Below are positions 13,246 through 54,764 of a stretch of 64,000 nt of DNA, piece by piece. The stretch is from the NCBI RefSeq assembly GCF_054482525.1, contig NZ_CM137006.1; one strand, given 5' to 3'. Made by a program: the position numbers and the translations under genes. Below the pieces are notes generated by a model. The model saw only the letters and a list, made by a program, of their open reading frames with translations. It ran no database searches and was not told the origin of the DNA. Every line of letters starts with the position of its first letter. Position 1 is the first letter of the stretch.

Positions 13246-14496
13246 GTGCTTACCGATACAAAATTAAAAAACCTCAAGCCGCAGGACAAACTGTACAAGG
13301 TCTCCGATCGTGACGGGCTGTATGTAGCTGTGCTTACGTCAGGCACGGTCTCGTTTCGCTATGACTACCGTATCAACGGTCGTCGCGAAACACTGGTAAT
13401 CGGGCAGTATGGGCGTGACGGTATCAGCCTGGCAGAAGCGCGAGAAGAACTGATTGCTGCAAAGAAGCTGCTTAAAGCAGGCCAGTCGCCGGCTGCGGCT
13501 AAACGTGACGGTATCAAAAAGATTCGTGGTGCCGAGACGTTTGCGGTACATACCGACAGTTATATGAAACACGTCATCCTGGCTGACAGTACCCGCGCAA
13601 TGAAGCAGGCGGTGATTGACCGTGACATACTTCCGGTTCTTGGTAACAAAATGATGGCTGAAATTACCACATCGATGGTTCGTGATTTGTGTGACCGGAT
13701 TGTCGAACGCGGTGGTCGGGCAACAGCAGTACAGGCCAGGGAGATCATCAGCAGCGTATACCGTCACGCCAATGACCGTGGTCATGGTTTGTTTAATCCT
13801 GCGGCTGACATTAAACCTTCGTCTATCGCCATATTTAAACCACGAGAGCGAACACTGACACCAGAAGAAATTGGCCTGTTCTTCCGCACGCTGGATGCCA
13901 TTGGTGCTATGGGCACTATGAAAATGGCTTTAAAGCTGGTGCTTATCACTATGGTTCGTAAAGGCGAATTCACCAACGCAACGTGGGATGAAATAGATTT
14001 TAAAAAATGGACATGGACAATTCCTTCAGACCGCATGAAGGGAAGCCGGGCGCACGTTATTTACCTGCCTAAACAGGCTCAGGATATATTGGTCGGGTTG
14101 CAGATGTGCGCTGGTGGAAGTGAATATCTGGTTCCTGGTCGTTACAATTTCCGGAAGCCATTATCTAATGCCGCGCTGAACTCTCTGATCGACAGAACGG
14201 TGAAAATAATAAATGAAGATGGTGAGCATATTCAGGGCTTCACCGTACACGATATGCGCCGTACAGCCAGTACGTTGTTGCATGAGGCTGGTTATCCTTC
14301 AGACTGGATTGAAAAGGCTCTGGCACATGAGCAGAAAGGTGTGCGCGCCGTATATAACAAAGCGGAATACGCCAGACAGCGCGCCTACATGTTGCAGCAG
14401 TGGGCCGATATGATTGATTCCTGGATTAACGGGGAGCATACGGATCTGATTCCGTTCTCCCCGTCGAAGTTTGAGAAGTGGATGGCGGGGGAATAA
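13246..14496 (+). CDS. int: Tyrosine integrase (P4-type, DUF4102-like N-terminal arm-binding domain)
   Basis: 416 aa with a GTG start. The N-terminus reads LTDTKLKNLKPQDKLYKVSDRDGLYVAV, and catalytic residues appear in HDMRRTASTLL...LAHE...VRAVY. Confidence 0.9.
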   Translation: MLTDTKLKNLKPQDKLYKVSDRDGLYVAVLTSGTVSFRYDYRINGRRETLVIGQYGRDGISLAEAREELIAAKKLLKAGQSPAAAKRDGIKKIRGAETFAVHTDSYMKHVILADSTRAMKQAVIDRDILPVLGNKMMAEITTSMVRDLCDRIVERGGRATAVQAREIISSVYRHANDRGHGLFNPAADIKPSSIAIFKPRERTLTPEEIGLFFRTLDAIGAMGTMKMALKLVLITMVRKGEFTNATWDEIDFKKWTWTIPSDRMKGSRAHVIYLPKQAQDILVGLQMCAGGSEYLVPGRYNFRKPLSNAALNSLIDRTVKIINEDGEHIQGFTVHDMRRTASTLLHEAGYPSDWIEKALAHEQKGVRAVYNKAEYARQRAYMLQQWADMIDSWINGEHTDLIPFSPSKFEKWMAGE

Positions 14497-14499
14497 CGT

Positions 14500-14694
14500 T
14501 TAATAGTTCTGCTGATTTTCTTCCATCTCTGCTTCTGCTGCCAGTGATTCAATTTTGTTTTCGAATATTGCTGACAGTGTTGCAAATTCAGCATCAGTGA
14601 CAGCGGGAATTGGAACAAACCTGATCCCGCTGTGTGCAAGCATGTTTGCAGTTTCAAGGCATTTTCTTAAATCTGCTGGTGATGCCCTGTTCAT
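14500..14694 (-). CDS. Hypothetical 64-aa protein
   Basis: The start MNRASPADLRKCLE overlaps the stop of the methyltransferase gene in an ATGA junction. The longer ORF-track version would overlap the methyltransferase by 124 nt. Confidence 0.5.
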   Translation of the reverse strand: MNRASPADLRKCLETANMLAHSGIRFVPIPAVTDAEFATLSAIFENKIESLAAEAEMEENQQNY

Positions 14695-15341
14695 GCAGCA
14701 CGCTCCCGCCCCTGGTTGTCTGTTGGTGACATCGGAGAATTGCTGAATGCATTTGTTAATCCGCCAATATCCAACGCGTATCCTGGGTGTAGTTGCACTG
14801 CCGGGCCTTCGCACTGGTTACCCCAAACATCGAAGCCATGAGACGTCTGGCGGGCGAACAGTTCAATGCGAGAAACATCGCCTAACAATTGCACAAGTTT
14901 TTCACGAACGACATCTGGTTTTCTTGAATGCTCAAGCCGCGGTGCGGTAAATGACTGAACGATACCTGCATTAATGCGCGGAGGTAGTTTTCCCTTTACT
15001 GCAAACAGGCAATCTTCACTATTGGCGCGAGTCATGTGTCCCATACCCATAACCAGTTTATCTGGTTGTCGACTACCACATTTTATCCACGTGAAGCCCT
15101 TCATGGTCATCAGACGGAATCCCCAGGCTTCAACAACTTTTAGTGCTTCGAGTGGTTGTGTTGGCACCCACCACATGGCCAACAGACAGTTTTCATCGGC
15201 CAAATCCCACACAGGAAGGCGGCAGATATCCAGCACACTCATAACAGGATATTTAAAACCGGCACCGCGATTACCATCTGCGGCTTTGTCCCGGTATACC
15301 CAGGGTGGATCTGCATAGATTAGTGTGTATTTCTTAGTCAT
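14691..15341 (-). CDS. MT-A70-family N6-adenine DNA methyltransferase (orphan)
   Basis: MTKKYTLIYADPPWVYRDK carries the DPPW catalytic motif. The ATG at 15341 overlaps the upstream stop (ATGACTAA). No adjacent restriction gene is seen. Confidence 0.75.
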   Translation of the reverse strand: MTKKYTLIYADPPWVYRDKAADGNRGAGFKYPVMSVLDICRLPVWDLADENCLLAMWWVPTQPLEALKVVEAWGFRLMTMKGFTWIKCGSRQPDKLVMGMGHMTRANSEDCLFAVKGKLPPRINAGIVQSFTAPRLEHSRKPDVVREKLVQLLGDVSRIELFARQTSHGFDVWGNQCEGPAVQLHPGYALDIGGLTNAFSNSPMSPTDNQGRERAA

Positions 15342-15633
15342 AAACCACCCCACAACATCCTATGCCGCTATAGTCGCCACGGCGAAGGCCGTTACCTTTT
15401 GTGATACATTGGTCCCTGCGAACCGCGATCCTTGCACGTTCAACATCACCAGAAGCAACATCCATACACTGAAGCCAAAGGTGAGCGGCAATGCGGAATT
15501 GCCCTTTTTTCTCTCTTTCAATCGCGCGTTTTTCGATCTCTATCGCCGCAGGAGTAACGGCGACAATCTTTGAAGGGCTGCGCATTGAAACCTTGTTCAT
15601 GTGATATTTTTCAAGTCGGCTTAACTTTCTCAC
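15334..15633 (-). CDS. PerC/ANR-like small transcriptional regulator (putative)
   Basis: 99 aa. The core AIEREKKGQFRIAAHLWLQCMDVASGDVERARIAVRRDQC follows the A..E..G..R.AA..W...ER...RR..C pattern that I associate with PerC-family proteins. Confidence 0.45.
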   Translation of the reverse strand: MRKLSRLEKYHMNKVSMRSPSKIVAVTPAAIEIEKRAIEREKKGQFRIAAHLWLQCMDVASGDVERARIAVRRDQCITKGNGLRRGDYSGIGCCGVVYD

Positions 15634-42802: not shown

Positions 42803-45277
42803 ATGAGACAGGAATGTATACAAGCGGTCCAGCAGGCGGCGCAGCGCACGTTAACGGCGCGAGAAATACAGAACATTGAAGACCGCATTTATCGAAATAT
42901 GCGCTCCATTGCTCGTGATGACCCGATGTCGTGGCGACAACTTTCCGAATCAGAACGGTTGTATCGTGCAGCACAATTGGCATCTGAAGAATTACAGCGA
43001 GAAGCGGCATTAAAGAAACGTCGTGTGGCCCTCACTATAGCCGCACGTCAGAGATTGGATAAATTTATCAATAGCTATCAAGGGGCTGATGGGAAACTTG
43101 GCGCTCTTAACCGTACTATTGCTTTTAATGCAGACGGTAAATCGAATTTCCTCTCTGTTGAATCCAGAACAAAAGCCACCCGTGATTATGCATTGAGTCA
43201 ATTGCAGGAGGCATTCGAAGCAGTTGATCCTCGCTTTTTTGGTCTGTTTGAAGATGAAGCGGGCGTACGTGACCTGATATATGAAATGCGGGGGCAAAAT
43301 ACTGGCAATGCTAAAGCAAGAAAAGGTGCTAAGGCGTGGAGAGAAGTTACAGAGCTGCTGCGCCGCCGGTTTAATGATGCTGGTGGGGACATTGGCTATC
43401 TCGAAAACTGGGGGATCCCTCAACATCATTCTATGGAAAAGGTTGGGGCGGTATCAAAAGATAAATGGGTTAGCGATGTTATAGGTAAGCTGGATCGCAA
43501 ATATTATACCCGAGCCGATGGACAACTGATGAACGATGCCGAGTTGTCTGCATTTCTTGGAGAGGCTTATAACACGATCGCTACTGGTGGGCTGAATAAG
43601 CTTACTGATACCGGAATGCGAATTTCCGGCGCACGTGCTAACCGTGGTAATGCATCACGACAGATACATTTCAAAGATGCAGATTCCTATCTGCAATATC
43701 AGCAACTTTATGGCGATCGCTCTCTATGGGAAATCATGGTCGGTCACCTGGAAGGTATCAGTAAAGATATTGCACTGGTGGAAACATATGGTCCAAACCC
43801 CGATCATGTTTTCCGCTCTCTTCTTGATCAGGTGAAGGCAGAAACGGCAACAGCTAACCCGAGTAAAACCGGTAAAGTCGAGCGGCTGGCGAACAACACA
43901 GAGAATCTGTACAACTTTATTTCCGGAAAGACACAGCCTGTAGCGAATCCGCACATCGCGCGATGGTCTGACAATATCCGCAACTGGCTGGTTGCCAGCA
44001 GACTCGGATCCGCGTTGCTGTCATCGTTCTCTGATCTTGGAACCATGTATCTGTCTGCGAAGGTTACCAACCTTCCAATGAACCAGTTATTCCGCAACCA
44101 GCTTGAAGCTATGGACCCAACGAACCGTACAGAACTTGCGCGGGCGCGCCGCGCTGGTCTGGCGATGGAATCTCTACTTGGCAGCGTTAACCGCTGGGCG
44201 ATGGATAATATGGGGCCGTCTGTGTCTCGTTGGGCTGCAACGGCGGTAATGCGTGCCAGTGGGCTTACAGCATGGTCAGATGCGCACAAGCGCGCCTATG
44301 GCGTAACCATGATGGGAAGCCTGGGAGAAGTAGTGTCACGGACACCAGACCTTCGTCGCCTCGATGACTCTGATTTTCGTATCCTGAAAAGCAAAGGGAT
44401 TACTGACACAGACTGGAGCGTATGGAAGTTGGCGCAACAGGAGGACTGGGGGAACGGTAATAATACGATGCTGACACCGGAAAGCATTATGCGTATCCCT
44501 GATTCAGCAGTTAAACATCTTGGTGAGCCTGAACGCGTGAAATTTGAGGCAATGCGTAAACTGCTCGGTGCCGTAACTGAAGAAGTTGATATGGCTGTTA
44601 TTACACCGGGAGCACGTGAGCAACTGATAACCGGTTCTGGTATTCAGCGTGGAACATGGAAAGGTGAATTAACGAGAAGTGTTTTCCTGTTTAAATCGTT
44701 CCCTATCTCGGTTGTTATGCGTCACTGGTCACGCGCTATGGGTATGCCGTCTGCTGGTGGGCGTGCGGCATATATTGCGACGTTTATTGCCAGTACGACC
44801 ATTCTTGGCGCTTTGTCGCAACAACTTAACGACCTTGCGTCTGGTCGTAATCCTCGAGAGATGACAGGAGAAGATGCTGCTAAATTTTGGCTTGGTGCTC
44901 TACTGAAAGGTGGTGGTCTTGGCCTTTACGGTGACTTTTTATTGTCAGATCACACTAGGTACGGGAGCGGCGCGCTGGCGTCGATGCTTGGCCCGGTAGC
45001 TGGTCTGGTTGATGACGTAGTGAAGATAGCTCAGGGCATACCGCTAAATGCTGTGGAAGGGAAGAGTGAGCAGACTGGTGGTGATCTGGTGAAGCTGGGG
45101 AAAGGTTTGATGCCAGGTGCGAATCTCTGGTACTTGAAGGCGGCTCTCGATCACATGATCTTTAATCAGATGCAGGAGTATTTTTCACCAGGCTATTTGC
45201 GTAAAATGGAGCAACGTTCGAAGAAAGAGTTTAACCAGACATACTGGTGGCGACCTCAGGATGTCACTCCGCAATAA
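42803..45277 (+). CDS. Large internal virion (ejection/core) protein
   Basis: 824 aa with C-terminal hydrophobic segments. Confidence 0.5.
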   Translation: MRQECIQAVQQAAQRTLTAREIQNIEDRIYRNMRSIARDDPMSWRQLSESERLYRAAQLASEELQREAALKKRRVALTIAARQRLDKFINSYQGADGKLGALNRTIAFNADGKSNFLSVESRTKATRDYALSQLQEAFEAVDPRFFGLFEDEAGVRDLIYEMRGQNTGNAKARKGAKAWREVTELLRRRFNDAGGDIGYLENWGIPQHHSMEKVGAVSKDKWVSDVIGKLDRKYYTRADGQLMNDAELSAFLGEAYNTIATGGLNKLTDTGMRISGARANRGNASRQIHFKDADSYLQYQQLYGDRSLWEIMVGHLEGISKDIALVETYGPNPDHVFRSLLDQVKAETATANPSKTGKVERLANNTENLYNFISGKTQPVANPHIARWSDNIRNWLVASRLGSALLSSFSDLGTMYLSAKVTNLPMNQLFRNQLEAMDPTNRTELARARRAGLAMESLLGSVNRWAMDNMGPSVSRWAATAVMRASGLTAWSDAHKRAYGVTMMGSLGEVVSRTPDLRRLDDSDFRILKSKGITDTDWSVWKLAQQEDWGNGNNTMLTPESIMRIPDSAVKHLGEPERVKFEAMRKLLGAVTEEVDMAVITPGAREQLITGSGIQRGTWKGELTRSVFLFKSFPISVVMRHWSRAMGMPSAGGRAAYIATFIASTTILGALSQQLNDLASGRNPREMTGEDAAKFWLGALLKGGGLGLYGDFLLSDHTRYGSGALASMLGPVAGLVDDVVKIAQGIPLNAVEGKSEQTGGDLVKLGKGLMPGANLWYLKAALDHMIFNQMQEYFSPGYLRKMEQRSKKEFNQTYWWRPQDVTPQ

Positions 45278-45286
45278 GGAAGTGTT

Positions 45287-45460
45287 GTGTTTTTAATTAT
45301 TTTGAGTGTGATAATTTCTGGTGGATTGTTATTTATTGACCGCTACAAATATTTTCTTAACCCTCAGACTCAAGCTATTTGCTGGTTCATCTTTGTTGTG
45401 CAGGGAGTAGTTCTTGTTGCAAGCCTTATTGAGGGGAGGCCTCTTATTTTTACTGGGTAA
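45287..45460 (+). CDS. 57-aa two-TM membrane protein (hypothetical)
   Basis: The GTG start has AAGGAAG 4 nt upstream. The sequence is VFLIILSVIISGGLLFIDRYKYFLNPQTQAICWFIFVVQGVVLVASLIEGRPLIFTG. It is below the ORF-track cutoff. Confidence 0.35.
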   Translation: MFLIILSVIISGGLLFIDRYKYFLNPQTQAICWFIFVVQGVVLVASLIEGRPLIFTG

Positions 45461-45472
45461 ATAGGTGACTAC

Positions 45473-45769
45473 ATGCAAGCTATAGGATTCATTGTTTATA
45501 TCGTCGTTGGTCTTTTTCAGTTGGCAGCAATTATGGCTGGGCTTGAATCATGGTGGGGATTGCACTGGATAATTGCAGCCCCCATTGCTTTCATCGTGAG
45601 CTATATTCCATTTGTTGGAGCGATTGTTGGTATGGTTGGCGCTGTGGATGTATGGCGGTGGGAGTGGTGGCAGGCTGGCCTTCTCTTCTTTGGTGGGATC
45701 ATCTTTGCTATTGTCTGCGGTGGAATGTCATCATTTTTCGAATGGCTATCATTCAGAAAAGGGACGTGA
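45473..45769 (+). CDS. 98-aa polytopic membrane protein (hypothetical)
   Basis: It has three to four hydrophobic segments and is Trp-rich (VDVWRWEWWQAG). Confidence 0.55.
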   Translation: MQAIGFIVYIVVGLFQLAAIMAGLESWWGLHWIIAAPIAFIVSYIPFVGAIVGMVGAVDVWRWEWWQAGLLFFGGIIFAIVCGGMSSFFEWLSFRKGT

Positions 45770-45777
45770 CATGTCAC
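45766..45777. repeat. Palindrome GTGACATGTCAC, copy 3
   Basis: It overlaps the stop codon of the 98-aa gene and directly abuts a terminator. Confidence 0.7.
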
Positions 45778-45802
45778 AGGCCGCTTTCGCGGCCTTGTTT
45801 TT
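45778..45802. terminator. Terminator at the end of the structural operon, shared with the convergent small gene
   Basis: AGGCCGC-tttc-GCGGCCT is followed by TGTTTTT. Confidence 0.75.
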
Positions 45803-45962
45803 AACGAATGCCACCGCCGCCCGGACGGGAATCCGCAGAACGCCCACCGCAGCGGGAGCCGTCAGCGGCAGTATCGCTGTCGTGCTGACAACGACCGGCA
45901 AAGGCCTGAGTTGAAGCTACCAGAGACAACAAAACGAACAGTGCAGCAAATGCTTTTTTCAT
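45801..45962 (-). CDS. Secreted 53-aa pre-peptide (signal peptide plus 31-aa Gly/Arg/Asp-rich, two-Cys mature part)
   Basis: MKKAFAALFVLLSLVASTQAFA | GRCQHDSDTAADGSRCGGRSADSRPGGGGIR. The longer GTG start at 46034 would begin inside the upstream terminator. Confidence 0.45.
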   Translation of the reverse strand: MKKAFAALFVLLSLVASTQAFAGRCQHDSDTAADGSRCGGRSADSRPGGGGIR

Positions 45963-46034
45963 TGTGAAATTTCCATCTATAAGCCACCTCAATGTGGCGT
46001 CAATGAGTGTAGCACTGACTTTTGTTTCGTCCAC

Positions 46035-46055
46035 AAAAAATCCCGCAGCGCGGGC
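46035..46055 (-). terminator. Terminator after the YafO-like gene
   Basis: On the minus strand, CCCGC-gct-GCGGG is followed by ATTTTTTG. Confidence 0.5.
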
Positions 46056-46601
46056 TTATTCCTTCCATTTATCAGAAAAAAGATCTTCTTCTAAAGGCAT
46101 TGGTTCTGTTTTTGTTTTCTCAAAGAATTGATAACTGATAGTGATTGCTGCCTCTTTAAACTCTTCTTGCTCAGTTATGTTGTGGGCATCTGCGTCAACA
46201 AAAAACATAACCAGCGCATCACGATTGTGATTTACCGAATAAACTAAAAAGCAATTACTTGTTGGTATGCATTTTACTTGCACAGACGCTATTTTTTTCC
46301 ATGCATCCCAAGATGATTTTTTACCAGTGTGTTTTTTATCACTATCTTCTGGAATATAGTCTTGGTTATCGACATGAGTATGCCTGACATTTAGTTTAAG
46401 CATTTCTGTCGGACGAGCAAATGCAGCATCTTTACCAAGAGATGGATGGTATCCCGTTTTCCAATACTGGGTAAAGGCATCAGATACTTTCTTCAGCTCA
46501 AGATCAGATGCACAAAGGGCCGAGAAATTTTGCGTATGCAATACTCGACCCTTATATCTGACAATTTGATTTTTATCATTCTGCGACGCAGACGAACTCA
46601 T
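46056..46601 (-). CDS. YafO-like toxin domain protein (putative ribosome-dependent mRNA interferase)
   Basis: It starts at MSSSASQ after AAGGAAAATT. The pattern F.QYWKTGYHPSLGKDAAF....LKLNVRHTHV...TSNCFLVYSVNHNRDALVMFFVDADAHN parallels the E. coli YafO pattern F.SYKRDGVLPDIFGRDALY...VAHIHL...DEAHLVYCQG...AWLLIAILKPEPH. Confidence 0.45.
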   Translation of the reverse strand: MSSSASQNDKNQIVRYKGRVLHTQNFSALCASDLELKKVSDAFTQYWKTGYHPSLGKDAAFARPTEMLKLNVRHTHVDNQDYIPEDSDKKHTGKKSSWDAWKKIASVQVKCIPTSNCFLVYSVNHNRDALVMFFVDADAHNITEQEEFKEAAITISYQFFEKTKTEPMPLEEDLFSDKWKE

Positions 46602-46755
46602 AATTTTCCTTATTGTTACGAGAATCAAAGAAAGCGCGGGATACGCGACTTGCGTGATCTTTTGTCATAGTAACTTTTACGCACTCTACGCTTCCATTGA
46701 AAGAACGTCTTGCGGCAGCTTGCGCTCTACGCATCTGCAATTTTTCGTTTCGCAT
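46576..46755 (-). CDS. 59-aa basic protein upstream of and overlapping the YafO-like gene (candidate antitoxin/regulator)
   Basis: MRNEKLQMRRAQAAARRSFNGSVECVKVTMTKDHASRVSRAFFDSRNNKENYEFVCVAE. A GAGGT SD lies 6 nt upstream, and it overlaps the downstream start by 26 nt. Confidence 0.3.
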   Translation of the reverse strand: MRNEKLQMRRAQAAARRSFNGSVECVKVTMTKDHASRVSRAFFDSRNNKENYEFVCVAE

Positions 46756-46902: not shown

Positions 46903-47598
46903 TCAGAAGAACCCTGCCTTGTCGTTGATGTACTCCGCGTGCGTCTGGATATCACGCAGGCATTTGCTCACACCGACGATGTAGCAGAACATGGTGGTCA
47001 GCTCCGCCGCCGCGCCCGATACGTCGTGCCCGTCGTCCTGTAACTGGTTCAGCAGATTCATCAGCAGTGAGTTCTCCGTCAGGCCGAGAACACCAGACGG
47101 CGAATGAATCAGGCTGCGGTAGCCGGGCTTCAGTGGGGCACTGTAGGTTTTGTTCTCTATCTTCATCGCCTGCATCACTGCTGATGCTGTGGCGTTGGCT
47201 ACCTGGTCGGCAACCATCTTTATGCGCTCTTCCTGCGGGAGCGAGTTTTTAATGTAACTTCCGGTGCGGCGGATCTGAGGAAGAACCTCACCTGTAACCC
47301 ATTTACGAAAGCGGTATGGGATAGTGCCTGGTGTCACTGCGTCGCGGCAGCGGAGGATCAGTGTGTAGAGGCCTGACTCGGAGATGATGATCGATTCTTG
47401 CTCACCGCCAGGGGTGTCGGTTGAAGCGACGCCCTTCTCATCATCATCAAGTTTTCGAACAGCATCTCGATGGTTTGCTATGCCTATAGCCCGACAAACA
47501 TCTGAAGCGATAAACCATGGCTCACCATTAATGACGATTACTCGTATATCGGCTTGGGATTCGAAAGAAAAAATGGACGTGCTTTTTGTAGCTGTCAT
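46903..47598 (-). CDS. Bro-N domain antirepressor-like protein
   Basis: 231 aa. The N-terminus FESQADIRVIVINGEPWFIASDVCRAIGIANHRDAVRKLDDDEKGV is a typical Bro-N domain. The C-terminal 70 aa are paralogous to the ORF at 47914-48186. Confidence 0.7.
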   Translation of the reverse strand: MTATKSTSIFSFESQADIRVIVINGEPWFIASDVCRAIGIANHRDAVRKLDDDEKGVASTDTPGGEQESIIISESGLYTLILRCRDAVTPGTIPYRFRKWVTGEVLPQIRRTGSYIKNSLPQEERIKMVADQVANATASAVMQAMKIENKTYSAPLKPGYRSLIHSPSGVLGLTENSLLMNLLNQLQDDGHDVSGAAAELTTMFCYIVGVSKCLRDIQTHAEYINDKAGFF

Positions 47599-47913: not shown

Positions 47914-48186
47914 TTATCTGGTTTGTTTTCGTAATTGTTCGGCACAATAGTCGAGATGTGTTTGCAGATCCTGCATAGACATCTGTGAGCTGGTGACGTA
48001 GTTAATCAGTGCAGTCAGTTCGGCAAGTGGGCCATCGACATTAAATCCATCCTTATCTAGATCCCGGAGTAATTTCATCAAGTGCGATCCCTCCACCAGT
48101 GACTTGACGCCTCCCGGCGTGTGAATCCTTTCGGTAAATCCGTCTTCCAGTGGATAGTGATACTGCTGCATCTTAATCTTCTCCAT
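47914..48186 (-). CDS. Small LexA-controlled protein homologous to the Ant C-terminal domain (candidate SOS antirepressor)
   Basis: A 90-aa ORF. The likely real start is the ATG at 48171 (85 aa), 9 nt after GGAG. IHTPGGVKSLVEGSHLMKLLRDLDKDGFNVDGPLAELTALINYV...MQDLQTHLDY aligns with Ant IHSPSGVLGLTENSLLMNLLNQLQDDGHDVSGAAAELTTMFCYI...LRDIQTHAEY. Confidence 0.6.
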   Translation of the reverse strand: MEKIKMQQYHYPLEDGFTERIHTPGGVKSLVEGSHLMKLLRDLDKDGFNVDGPLAELTALINYVTSSQMSMQDLQTHLDYCAEQLRKQTR

Positions 48187-51142: not shown

Positions 51143-51178
51143 TTGTATCAATTTGCTAAATTAAAAAAGGATAAAAAT

Positions 51179-51463
51179 ATGGATACAACACCAATAACAC
51201 ATGCAGTATGCGCGGTTATTGCGCAGATACTGGTTGGCCTTTCTACCGGAAACTGGGCTTACGGTGCGATAGCCGGTTGTACGTTCTTCATTGCGCGTGA
51301 ACACACCCAGGCAGAATATCGCTGGATAGAAAAGTTTGGGAAAGGGAAACGTATCAACATGCCATGGTGGGGAGGTTTTGATCCACGCGTGTGGGATGTG
51401 GGAAGTCTGTTGGATTTTGCTGTTCCTGTCATTTTTTGTTTTTGTATTTATTTCTCTATTTGA
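51179..51463 (+). CDS. 94-aa membrane protein (hypothetical)
   Basis: It starts at MDTTPITHAVCAV, has three hydrophobic segments and is AT-rich. The TTG start at 51143 is unlikely. Confidence 0.45.
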   Translation: MDTTPITHAVCAVIAQILVGLSTGNWAYGAIAGCTFFIAREHTQAEYRWIEKFGKGKRINMPWWGGFDPRVWDVGSLLDFAVPVIFCFCIYFSI

Positions 51464-51467
51464 CCGC

Positions 51468-51492
51468 TACCGCGCCATCAAATGGCGCGGTA
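51468..51492 (+). other. Strong hairpin after the membrane-protein gene
   Basis: An 11-bp stem, TACCGCGCCAT-caa-ATGGCGCGGTA, with no T-run. Confidence 0.4.
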
Positions 51493-51674
51493 TTCAACCC
51501 GATCTCCATAGTTTGAATCATTTCTGTACTGTTGTTTCTTCAGTGTTATGTAAAAGGTGAGCCTTATTATCGGCATGAAAACAGGGGATTGACGATGTTG
51601 AAGTAACAAAAAACCATAAATGGTTTATCATGCATAATGCTTTACTGTTCAGGAGGTAGTTATGCATATAAACG

Positions 51675-52088
51675 GTGGAAAACATGTCAGCTCAACTAAC
51701 CAGTGAAACTTTAAATCAGTGGCTTAGCATGAGTTCTCTGGCGGCGGTGATAGCAGGAGTTCCTCCTGAGGTTGCTTTGGGGGCTTTGGCTGGAGCGGTA
51801 ATTTTTGTTACCTCTGCGGTAGAGTATCCCATTCGTCGTCGTGTACTCTTGTCGATGCTTAGCTTTCTCTGCGGCCTTCTTTTTTATAAACCAGCAGCAT
51901 CAATTCTTATCGGCATAGCCAGCATGATCCCTACTATCACGCAGGACTCTTTTGAAAAAGGGATTGTTTTCTCTGCTGGCGCATTCGTGTCAGCAATTGT
52001 TGCTGTGCGTATTGGTATATGGCTCTACCACCGTTCCGATAATCCACGCGAGTTAATTCCGGGGAGAAAAGACGATGGTAACGCATGA
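51675..52088 (+). CDS. Holin-like multi-TM protein
   Basis: 137 aa with 3-4 TM segments and a charged C-terminus. It is the first gene of the lysis cluster. Confidence 0.45.
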   Translation: MENMSAQLTSETLNQWLSMSSLAAVIAGVPPEVALGALAGAVIFVTSAVEYPIRRRVLLSMLSFLCGLLFYKPAASILIGIASMIPTITQDSFEKGIVFSAGAFVSAIVAVRIGIWLYHRSDNPRELIPGRKDDGNA

Positions 52089-53690: not shown

Positions 53691-54230
53691 TTAATTAAAC
53701 CAGCTGTCCGATTTGTTCTCTTCTGCTTTGCCCACGCTTTTCATCAGATCTCGACCGCCCTCAGTCATATTCCTGTTTGCGTCAGCTTCAGATTGCACCA
53801 CATCGGTTTGCGCAGCTTTGTGCTTCAGTTCCTGATCGATAAATTCGTTTTCTCGCTTAACGCGGGCTTCTTCTTTCGCCAGCGCCAGTTTTTGTTTCTG
53901 AATCTCTAAGCTGCGTAGCTCATCTTCATAACTTTGATCGCGTTTTTTGTCCGCAGAGGCTTCGGCGTCCAGTTTATCCTGACGAGCTTTCTTATTTGCC
54001 GCTGCCGTTGCCGCTCTTTTGTTAGCGGCGGCCTGGGCGTTTGCGCGACGTTGCTTCTCTTGCTGGATTTCCCTGTTGCGCTCCGCGACCCATTCGTCAT
54101 GCTGCCTTTGCTCTTCATTTTTACCTTGCTGTTCCGCTTCTGCGACAGCAGAGAGTTGATCCTGCAATGATGAGGCGATAGCCGGATAGCTTAAGGAGGC
54201 TAAGATGGCGCAAAGAAAAACTTTCTTCAT
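53691..54230 (-). CDS. yfgI: YfgI (secreted coiled-coil protein)
   Basis: 179 aa with a signal peptide (MKKVFLCAILASLSYPAIA) and Lys/Glu/Gln-rich repeats. Its position is as in K-12. Confidence 0.85.
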   Translation of the reverse strand: MKKVFLCAILASLSYPAIASSLQDQLSAVAEAEQQGKNEEQRQHDEWVAERNREIQQEKQRRANAQAAANKRAATAAANKKARQDKLDAEASADKKRDQSYEDELRSLEIQKQKLALAKEEARVKRENEFIDQELKHKAAQTDVVQSEADANRNMTEGGRDLMKSVGKAEENKSDSWFN

Positions 54231-54245
54231 GACTCCTCCTGATCA

Positions 54246-54764
54246 TTAGCTCTTTTCAGGACATTTGGTATTTGGCTGAATACGCGTTTCGTTATACGTC
54301 GTGGTAATAACAACGGCTAAACCTGTCGTAAACTGGCACTCTTTACCCACCTGGGTGGAGGTATACACTTTGGTGCCTTCCTTATACGTTAGAGAAACAC
54401 CTTCCACTAAGGTTTTATCATTCACCATAGAACCCGCTGCCGCGCCAACAGCTCCGCCGCCAACTGCACCTGCCGTCGTTCCGGAATTGCTGCCAGACCC
54501 GACGTTGTGGCCAATAACACCGCCAGCGACTGCACCAATAAGCGCGCCGAAGGCTTGTGCGTTTCGTTTATTTTGGGAGTTGTCTACGGCAACTTTTGCG
54601 GGAAGAATGGAAATAATATTAACGGTTTTAGTTTCTTGTTTGGTATTCAGTTGATCGGTTTGATAAACATCGGCGGCATGATCATCAGCATTTGACTGGC
54701 ATCCTGCCAGAGTGAATGACGCTAACATTGCCACAGGCAGAAGACATTTTTTAAATTTCATCAC
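54246..54764 (-). CDS. yfgH: Outer-membrane lipoprotein YfgH (glycine-zipper)
   Basis: 172 aa with the lipobox LAGC and GALIGAVAGGVIGHNVGSG. Confidence 0.85.
   Translation of the reverse strand: MMKFKKCLLPVAMLASFTLAGCQSNADDHAADVYQTDQLNTKQETKTVNIISILPAKVAVDNSQNKRNAQAFGALIGAVAGGVIGHNVGSGSNSGTTAGAVGGGAVGAAAGSMVNDKTLVEGVSLTYKEGTKVYTSTQVGKECQFTTGLAVVITTTYNETRIQPNTKCPEKS

Follow-up and report, generated by a model that had tools for sequence, protein, structure and literature searches.

Three small genes for envelope-targeted proteins at the meeting point of two independent modules in a phiV10/epsilon15-like prophage of Escherichia coli

The prophage of phage P22 protects its host with SieA, an inner-membrane protein with three transmembrane (TM) segments that blocks DNA delivery via the gp16/gp20 conduit (Leavitt et al. 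2024, PMC10883804). In P22, the sieA gene is flanked by gene 16 and the antirepressor/tailspike region; it is accessory, being present in only some relatives, and SieA types A-C carry the cytoplasmic motif FxRYPxEAxxFNK (PMC10883804). In epsilon15 (gp21 and gp22, the latter a two-TM protein of 66 amino acids (aa)) and phiV10 (Oac), prophage-encoded membrane proteins alter the surface receptor. The concept of the moron, of which lambda bor is an example, was reviewed previously (PMC3594210). In our study, these systems were compared with a stretch of about 750 bp (positions 45287-46034) in a window of 64,000 nucleotides (nt) from contig NZ_CM137006.1 of assembly GCF_054482525.1, an E. coli chromosome segment carrying a phiV10/epsilon15-like (genus Uetakevirus) prophage. 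The stretch contains three small open reading frames (ORFs), named here ORF1, ORF2 and ORF3, which the original prediction had described as a single cluster at the position where related phages carry serotype-conversion or exclusion genes.

The three ORFs were found where they had been predicted, the mature sequence of the ORF3 peptide was identical to the one quoted, and our analysis demonstrated that each is a real gene whose product is targeted to the envelope. It also demonstrated that they are not one cluster; ORF1 and ORF2 on one side and ORF3 on the other are two modules of independent origin joined at a bidirectional terminator. Because chance alone makes small open frames common (5.5 kb contained 64 ORFs of 30 aa or more), conservation rather than an open frame was taken as evidence for a gene. 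All three were conserved across the Enterobacterales and were under purifying selection, with ratios of nonsynonymous to synonymous substitution rates (dN/dS) between 0.02 and 0.38. Hydropathy agreed with envelope targeting of each product, giving two TM segments for ORF1, three hydrophobic segments for ORF2, and one N-terminal hydrophobic region (h-region) for ORF3. The end coordinate of the predicted cluster, 46034, was just the upstream GTG of a 77-aa extension of ORF3, and this extension was not conserved.

ORF1 (45287-45460, plus strand, GTG start) encodes a predicted two-TM inner-membrane protein of 57 aa, with a basic loop between its two hydrophobic segments. Its start codon lies 10 nt past the stop of the gp17-like gene, behind an AAGGAAG Shine-Dalgarno sequence. 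The gp17-like gene (42803-45277, plus strand) encodes the last of the large virion proteins, a homologue (28% identity) of epsilon15 gp17, which an HMM (hidden Markov model) study assigned to the T7 gp16 / IVP-D ejection-protein class (PMC4819975). The relatives of ORF1 always started at this same distance of 10 nt from the gp17 stop, their start codon being GTG, TTG or ATG, and we infer that ORF1 is translationally coupled to the gp17-like gene. These relatives formed 13 database clusters of 57-58 aa with 67-98% identity (dN/dS 0.18-0.38) and came from Escherichia, Citrobacter, Klebsiella, Salmonella and Enterobacter. Of 5426 complete E. coli genomes, 204 carried ORF1, and among the matches listed it was without any annotated feature in RefSeq E. 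coli genomes.

ORF2 (45473-45769, plus strand, ATG start; phrog_3075) begins 12 nt after ORF1 and encodes a predicted polytopic inner-membrane protein of 98 aa that is rich in Trp (8 residues). The middle one of its three hydrophobic segments spans 34 residues, and the AlphaFold2 model was confident (pLDDT, the predicted local distance difference test, of 90), with helices at residues 3-28, 32-42, 46-59 and 65-97. The gene was present in 215 of the 5426 genomes, and its dN/dS against a Klebsiella phage was 0.02. As the family, which comprised 52 database clusters, was conserved from Met1 on, the 98-aa start is right, and the call in RefSeq strain N1131, which begins at an internal Met 20 codons late and yields 78 aa, is too short.

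ORF3 (WP_000708858.1, phrog_14503) lies on the minus strand, from its ATG at 45962 to its stop at 45801, and encodes a pre-peptide of 53 aa. Residues 1-22 (45897-45962, minus strand) form a predicted signal peptide that reads MKK, then AFAALFVLLSLVA, then STQ-A-F-A, with A-F-A before the predicted cleavage site and G after it. By hydropathy and sequence, this segment had the basic n-region, the 13-residue h-region, and the small residues at -3 and -1 of a cleavable Sec-type signal. A lipobox of the Cor/Llp type (L-[AS]-[GA]-C) was absent, as the corresponding residues read A-G-R/N-C and placed the Cys at position +3 from the predicted cleavage site. The mature part (31 aa, 45804-45896, minus strand) holds a Cys25-x12-Cys38 loop motif. 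In its homologues, which formed 57 clusters from at least 10 enterobacterial genera, the signal peptide was variable, including its h-region, an AxA-type pattern was kept in nearly all, and the mature part was nearly invariant, including both Cys residues (dN/dS 0.03-0.09 for divergent pairs). A short ORF (ATGGAAATTTCACAATGA) that lies upstream and overlaps the start of ORF3 was dropped from consideration, its frame not being conserved in other loci.

The separate origin of the two modules was evident from the company that ORF3 keeps. In 80 IMG/VR contigs with an identical ORF3, it always closed the operon diverging from the tailspike gene, which consisted of a gp19-like gene, sometimes Bro-N, sometimes a 59-aa ORF with a YafO-like gene or else a DUF2335 gene, and then ORF3. 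The convergent partner of this same ORF3 varied and was ORF2-ORF1-gp17, gp17 without either, a lipoprotein gene followed by gp17, Arc-Ant, or a different phage type. ORF3 belongs with the tailspike/gp19 module and not with ORF1 and ORF2, which end the late operon. GC content was likewise mosaic, at about 37.5% in ORF1, 50% in ORF2, 55-57% in ORF3, and 34-40% in the YafO-like gene. Like phage morons, ORF3 is a single gene between two phage modules, with its own predicted promoter and terminators, a differing GC content, and a wider spread than its neighbors; it occurred in 445 of the 5426 E. coli genomes, against the 204 and 215 of ORF1 and ORF2, independently of these flanking genes, and was found in other prophage types too. 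Unlike characterized morons, its product belongs to a family without known function.

A GC-rich hairpin terminator (45778-45795) is common to the two convergent units, with a strong T-tract on the plus strand. Its structure was conserved, with one compensatory change, and this predicted element marks the putative recombination junction of the two modules. No terminator separated ORF1 and ORF2 from the rest of the late operon, and a strong one followed ORF2. On the far side of ORF3, the upstream YafO-like gene ends in an intrinsic terminator (CCCGCGCTGCGGG then ATTTTTT; 46042-46054, minus strand), which is predicted to insulate ORF3 from the upstream operon. ORF3 was said to have no dyad, and this proved incorrect, as a GCCAC-N6-GTGGC hairpin was found upstream of it (45983-45998, minus strand), at the predicted 5' end of its transcript, followed by a GGAAA Shine-Dalgarno-like element. 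The 5-bp hairpin was paired in eight of eight loci, and its two variable pairs changed only to G.U wobble, which in this small sample (eight loci) hints at a constraint on RNA rather than DNA. A promoter proposed earlier for ORF3 (TTGACG-16-TATAGA, 46003-45976) was indeed present, but it lacks the T at -7, was not conserved in homologous loci, and was replaced by a conserved candidate. The best candidate, TGGACG-16-(TG)C-TACACT (46006-46033, minus strand), lies about 30 bp upstream of it, and its -10 element (46011-46006, with TG extension) read TACAAT or TACACT in seven of eight diverged loci and TAAACT in one. These sequence predictions gave ORF3 the anatomy of an independently transcribed moron (promoter, hairpin and terminators), in agreement with the original prediction.

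The product of ORF3 was demonstrated to belong to an uncharacterized mini-domain family. Its mature part is a stand-alone version of a 27-residue motif, G-[NP]-C-x4-D-x-A-x-D-G-S-R-C-G-x-R-[SA]-A-x-x-R-P-G-G, and a profile search with the ORF3 family returned 464 proteins among 1.84 billion representatives at E<=1e-3. Among the matches listed that fit the pattern, which itself fixes several of the positions described, the motif stood alone after a signal peptide in 33, was C-terminal in 40, was N-terminal in 31, where a TM segment follows it, and was internal in 16. Genomes bearing the motif included Rhizobiales, cyanobacteria, Vibrio and Bacteriovorax. No entry in Pfam, NCBIfam or the PDB covered the motif, the PDB having also been searched with a sequence profile. 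In the larger proteins, SH3b was the only Pfam or NCBIfam domain, present in a few of them and elsewhere in the chain, and the motif-protein clusters were all named "hypothetical". Within the Enterobacterales, the genes neighboring the motif encoded largely phage proteins, of several prophage types. On a contig of a Devosia metagenome-assembled genome (L053, 3497-5120), a gene with the ORF3 motif was observed about 1.1 kb from a homologue (40% identity) of the tailspike N-terminal domain, which suggests that the linkage of tailspike and ORF3 reaches beyond the Enterobacterales.

The slot occupied by ORF1 and ORF2, behind the ejection-protein gene, was filled in various ways among related prophages. 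In prophages of Salmonella and Yersinia, too, ORF2 came after the last ejection-protein gene, and in the Salmonella prophage the ORF2 homologue was 52% identical although the gp17 homologue was only 26% identical. Elsewhere, the ORF2 slot held a 126-aa lipoprotein with an LVGC lipobox (Salmonella and Citrobacter prophages; L012 5418-5804 and L016 5279-5659) or a 92-aa membrane protein (Kluyvera), while in Buttiauxella a 91-aa membrane protein directly followed the gp17-like gene, and in a Yersinia prophage the slot contained a secreted 147-aa protein together with an ORF2 homologue; these secreted 147-aa or unrelated 91-92-aa membrane proteins lie at L010 5539-5982, L021 5195-5473 and L030 5188-5463. 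Epsilon15 gp18 (64 aa) and phiV10 p21 (46 aa) share with ORF1 a position after the gp17 gene, a similar size, and two hydrophobic segments, whereas the ORF1 sequence was unrelated to p21 (21% identity) and to gp18 (hhalign probability <1%); no function is known for gp18, p21 or ORF1. A constant position, envelope targeting, and interchangeable sequence are as expected of accessory cargo acting at the envelope, and the claim that the stretch is a hot spot for such cargo was borne out.

Compared with the described systems, P22 sieA is a closer positional analogue of this slot than the epsilon15 conversion genes. ORF2, as predicted, shares with SieA the nature of a small polytopic inner-membrane protein, and its gene likewise falls in the interval from the last ejection-protein gene to the tailspike. 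SieA, in contrast, has 162 aa and the FxRYPxEAxxFNK motif, which ORF2 lacks. The epsilon15 O-antigen polymerase and alpha-polymerase inhibitor genes and phiV10 oac are all downstream of the tailspike gene, and the equivalent position in the window is about 51143-51675 rather than 45287-46034, so the likeness of position to epsilon15 that had been claimed does not hold. A hydrophobic protein of 94-106 aa without a Pfam match is encoded directly after the tailspike gene (51143-51463, plus strand); it occupies the slot of epsilon15 gp21/gp22 and phiV10 Oac and, by position, is a better candidate for modifying the receptor than ORF1-ORF3. Scans of the three ORFs against Pfam, NCBIfam, PADLOC and PHROG gave only PHROGs of "unknown function" or "membrane associated" and sub-threshold noise, and matches to the holin Hol44, HxsA3, and the MarB signal peptide were set aside as such.

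On balance, we somewhat favor the account in which the stretch is a junction of two accessory-gene modules with products that act at the envelope. Expression from the distal end of the late virion operon would yield ORF1 and ORF2 as small inner-membrane proteins; their slot is filled in each related prophage by one or two small membrane proteins or lipoproteins unrelated in sequence. ORF3 would be a self-contained transcription unit (promoter, 5' stem-loop, ORF and terminator) closing the operon divergent from the tailspike, and its product would be exported by Sec, cleaved after AFA, and oxidized to a periplasmic mini-protein of about 3 kDa with one disulfide loop. The three genes would be accessory cargo acting at the envelope, possibly in exclusion; a more specific and tentative proposal is that ORF1 and ORF2 target the ejection-protein conduit at the inner membrane, where they could block the DNA entry of related phages or restrain the prophage's own membrane-active ejection proteins. 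For the ORF3 peptide, binding to an envelope component in the lysogen is conceivable, if somewhat doubtful. A bolder and quite unlikely version combines an unrelated, SieA-like inner-membrane block by ORF1 and ORF2 with a mature ORF3 that is the minimal free form of an undescribed Cys-loop domain, serving as a secreted periplasmic decoy or inhibitor. Such a decoy would target the periplasmic ejection conduit of an incoming phage, or a cell-wall or lipopolysaccharide ligand, and would amount to superinfection exclusion by a soluble peptide.

Several observations weigh against the favored account. The ORF2 family did not resemble P22 SieA (hhalign probability 0.2%), and ORF1 resembled neither epsilon15 gp22 nor gp18; no homology of the three ORFs was found to any exclusion or conversion protein, including those of epsilon15, to any PADLOC defense model, or to an informative Pfam or NCBIfam entry. 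The sieA gene, on the opposite strand, has a promoter of its own that is active in the prophage, whereas ORF1 and ORF2 are late-strand genes. No credible sigma-70 promoter was found ahead of them on that strand, and their expression in the lysogen is therefore doubtful. For ORF3, the candidate -35 (TGGACG) was weak, the hairpin covariation rested on eight sequences with wobble changes only, and the AlphaFold2 model of the mature part was poor (pLDDT 64) and unusable. Outside the Enterobacterales, most neighbors of the ORF3 motif were ordinary genes of chromosomes or mobile elements, and an anti-phage role is therefore not intrinsic to the motif. Expression, localization or phenotype data for the three genes were not found in the literature searched, and searches on the ORF3 accession, the motif, its database name, and Uetakevirus morons returned nothing relevant. 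No transcriptome covering this prophage type was found; that of LF82 "Gally" was rejected as expression evidence, since it concerns a P22/HK620-like phage and not this prophage type.

Rather than acting on phages, ORF3 could be a host-directed factor of lysogenic conversion, either a metal- or ligand-binding periplasmic peptide or an uncleaved, membrane-anchored modulator of a sensor in the manner of MgrB, a reading that we consider doubtful. MgrB-like envelope regulators are, as is ORF3, peptides roughly 50 aa long in which a hydrophobic N-terminal segment is followed by a short periplasmic part with two conserved Cys residues. The autonomy of the ORF3 cassette, its conserved Cys pair with an Asp/His cluster, its database name of "transmembrane anchored protein", and the occurrence of the motif in chromosomal, non-phage settings (Rhizobiales and cyanobacteria), fused to SH3b or to membrane-anchored proteins, are in line with such a role. 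To our knowledge, ORF3 has no detectable sequence similarity to MgrB and no link to any sensor kinase, and no similarity to a characterized regulator or metal-binding domain was found. ORF3 differs from MgrB in its typical cleavable AxA signal, and the short h-region (about 13 residues) with the conserved AxA favors cleavage over anchoring. The largely phage-encoded neighborhood of ORF3 in the Enterobacterales also argues against a host-directed factor.

ORF1 and ORF2 could instead be confined to the lytic cycle, as a membrane "immunity" protein or chaperone that stops the membrane-inserting ejection proteins of the phage itself from harming the producing cell ahead of packaging, with no role in the lysogen. 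Their place on the late-operon strand with no promoter or terminator between, the inferred translational coupling of ORF1 to gp17, and a linkage to the IVP-D-class gene that persists across deep divergence are consistent with this. However, ORF2 is missing from phiV10, whose gp17 3' end is 97% identical, and the slot is occupied by unrelated proteins, including a lipoprotein; dispensable cargo fits these varied occupants and this absence better than a dedicated chaperone, and we regard the lytic-cycle role as unlikely. A role of ORF2, with or without ORF1, as a small protein that forms pores or times lysis (a holin, an antiholin, or a viroporin-like protein) is very unlikely, as the matches behind it are sub-threshold; Holin superfamily V (PF16079) reached 15.2 bits with ORF2 against a gathering cutoff of 29.2 and matched only 3 of 30 family members. 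Serotype conversion, in which small membrane proteins would alter O-antigen polymerization as epsilon15 gp22/gp21 do and thereby change the tailspike receptor, is highly improbable, because in spite of the size and two-TM topology that ORF1 has in common with the epsilon15 alpha-polymerase inhibitor, and although no recognizable oac, gtr or wzy gene adjoins this prophage's tailspike, ORF1-ORF3 lie at a different locus, ORF1 shows no similarity to the inhibitor, this prophage region encodes no polymerase or transferase as a partner (neither Wzy-like nor acetyltransferase genes), and epsilon15 and phiV10 carry their own small two-TM gene (gp18, p21) at the ORF1 position besides their conversion genes.

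The prophage in the window is bounded on the left by an integrase gene (13246-14496), and host genes are back by about 55.6 kb. The DNA around ORF1-ORF3 matched phiV10-type phages and several hundred E. coli chromosomes, and the best-matching E. coli chromosome and phiV10 had the same gene order of three large virion proteins, small ORFs, leftward Bro-N and gp19-like genes, tailspike, and lysis cassette. A gene for an MT-A70-family methyltransferase (14691-15353, minus strand) adjoins the integrase just inside the left end, and two leftward genes at the right end (53691-54764, minus strand), encoding a DUF5384 protein and a glycine-zipper/TraT-like protein, are further cargo of envelope type. 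The 90-aa gp19-like protein (47914-48186, minus strand) matched the same PHROGs (phrog_450, phrog_15539 and phrog_1760) as did roughly residues 131-231, in the C-terminal part of the neighboring Bro-N antirepressor-like protein (46903-47598, minus strand), and it looks like a free-standing copy of that C-terminal domain. Upstream of ORF3, the YafO-family-like gene and an overlapping 59-aa ORF ahead of it (phrog_6685) occupy 46056-46755 (minus strand) and may be a toxin-antitoxin system. The YafO-like gene scored 23.2 bits in Pfam, slightly below the cutoff of 25, and is named a YafO-family toxin in RefSeq; the 59-aa ORF, which has an annotation in phage TL-2011b but none in RefSeq strain N1131, showed no similarity to P22 orf59a. 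The pair was AT-rich (34-40% GC), was present in only some ORF3-bearing contigs, and had no match in PADLOC or the PDB.

ORF1-ORF3 are ordinary but uncharacterized prophage cargo, of which the Cys-loop motif of ORF3 is the most interesting lead. The ORF3 cassette is carried by about 8% of complete E. coli genomes, and ORF1 with ORF2 by about 4%, none with a known function. The slot after the epsilon15-like ejection-protein genes is a systematic home of small envelope proteins, parallel to the sieA locus of P22, and offers a concrete place to seek new exclusion mechanisms aimed at podovirus DNA delivery. The ORF3 motif is an uncurated mini-domain in hundreds of secreted or membrane proteins of Proteobacteria and cyanobacteria, and the phage version would be the simplest handle on the role of this domain.

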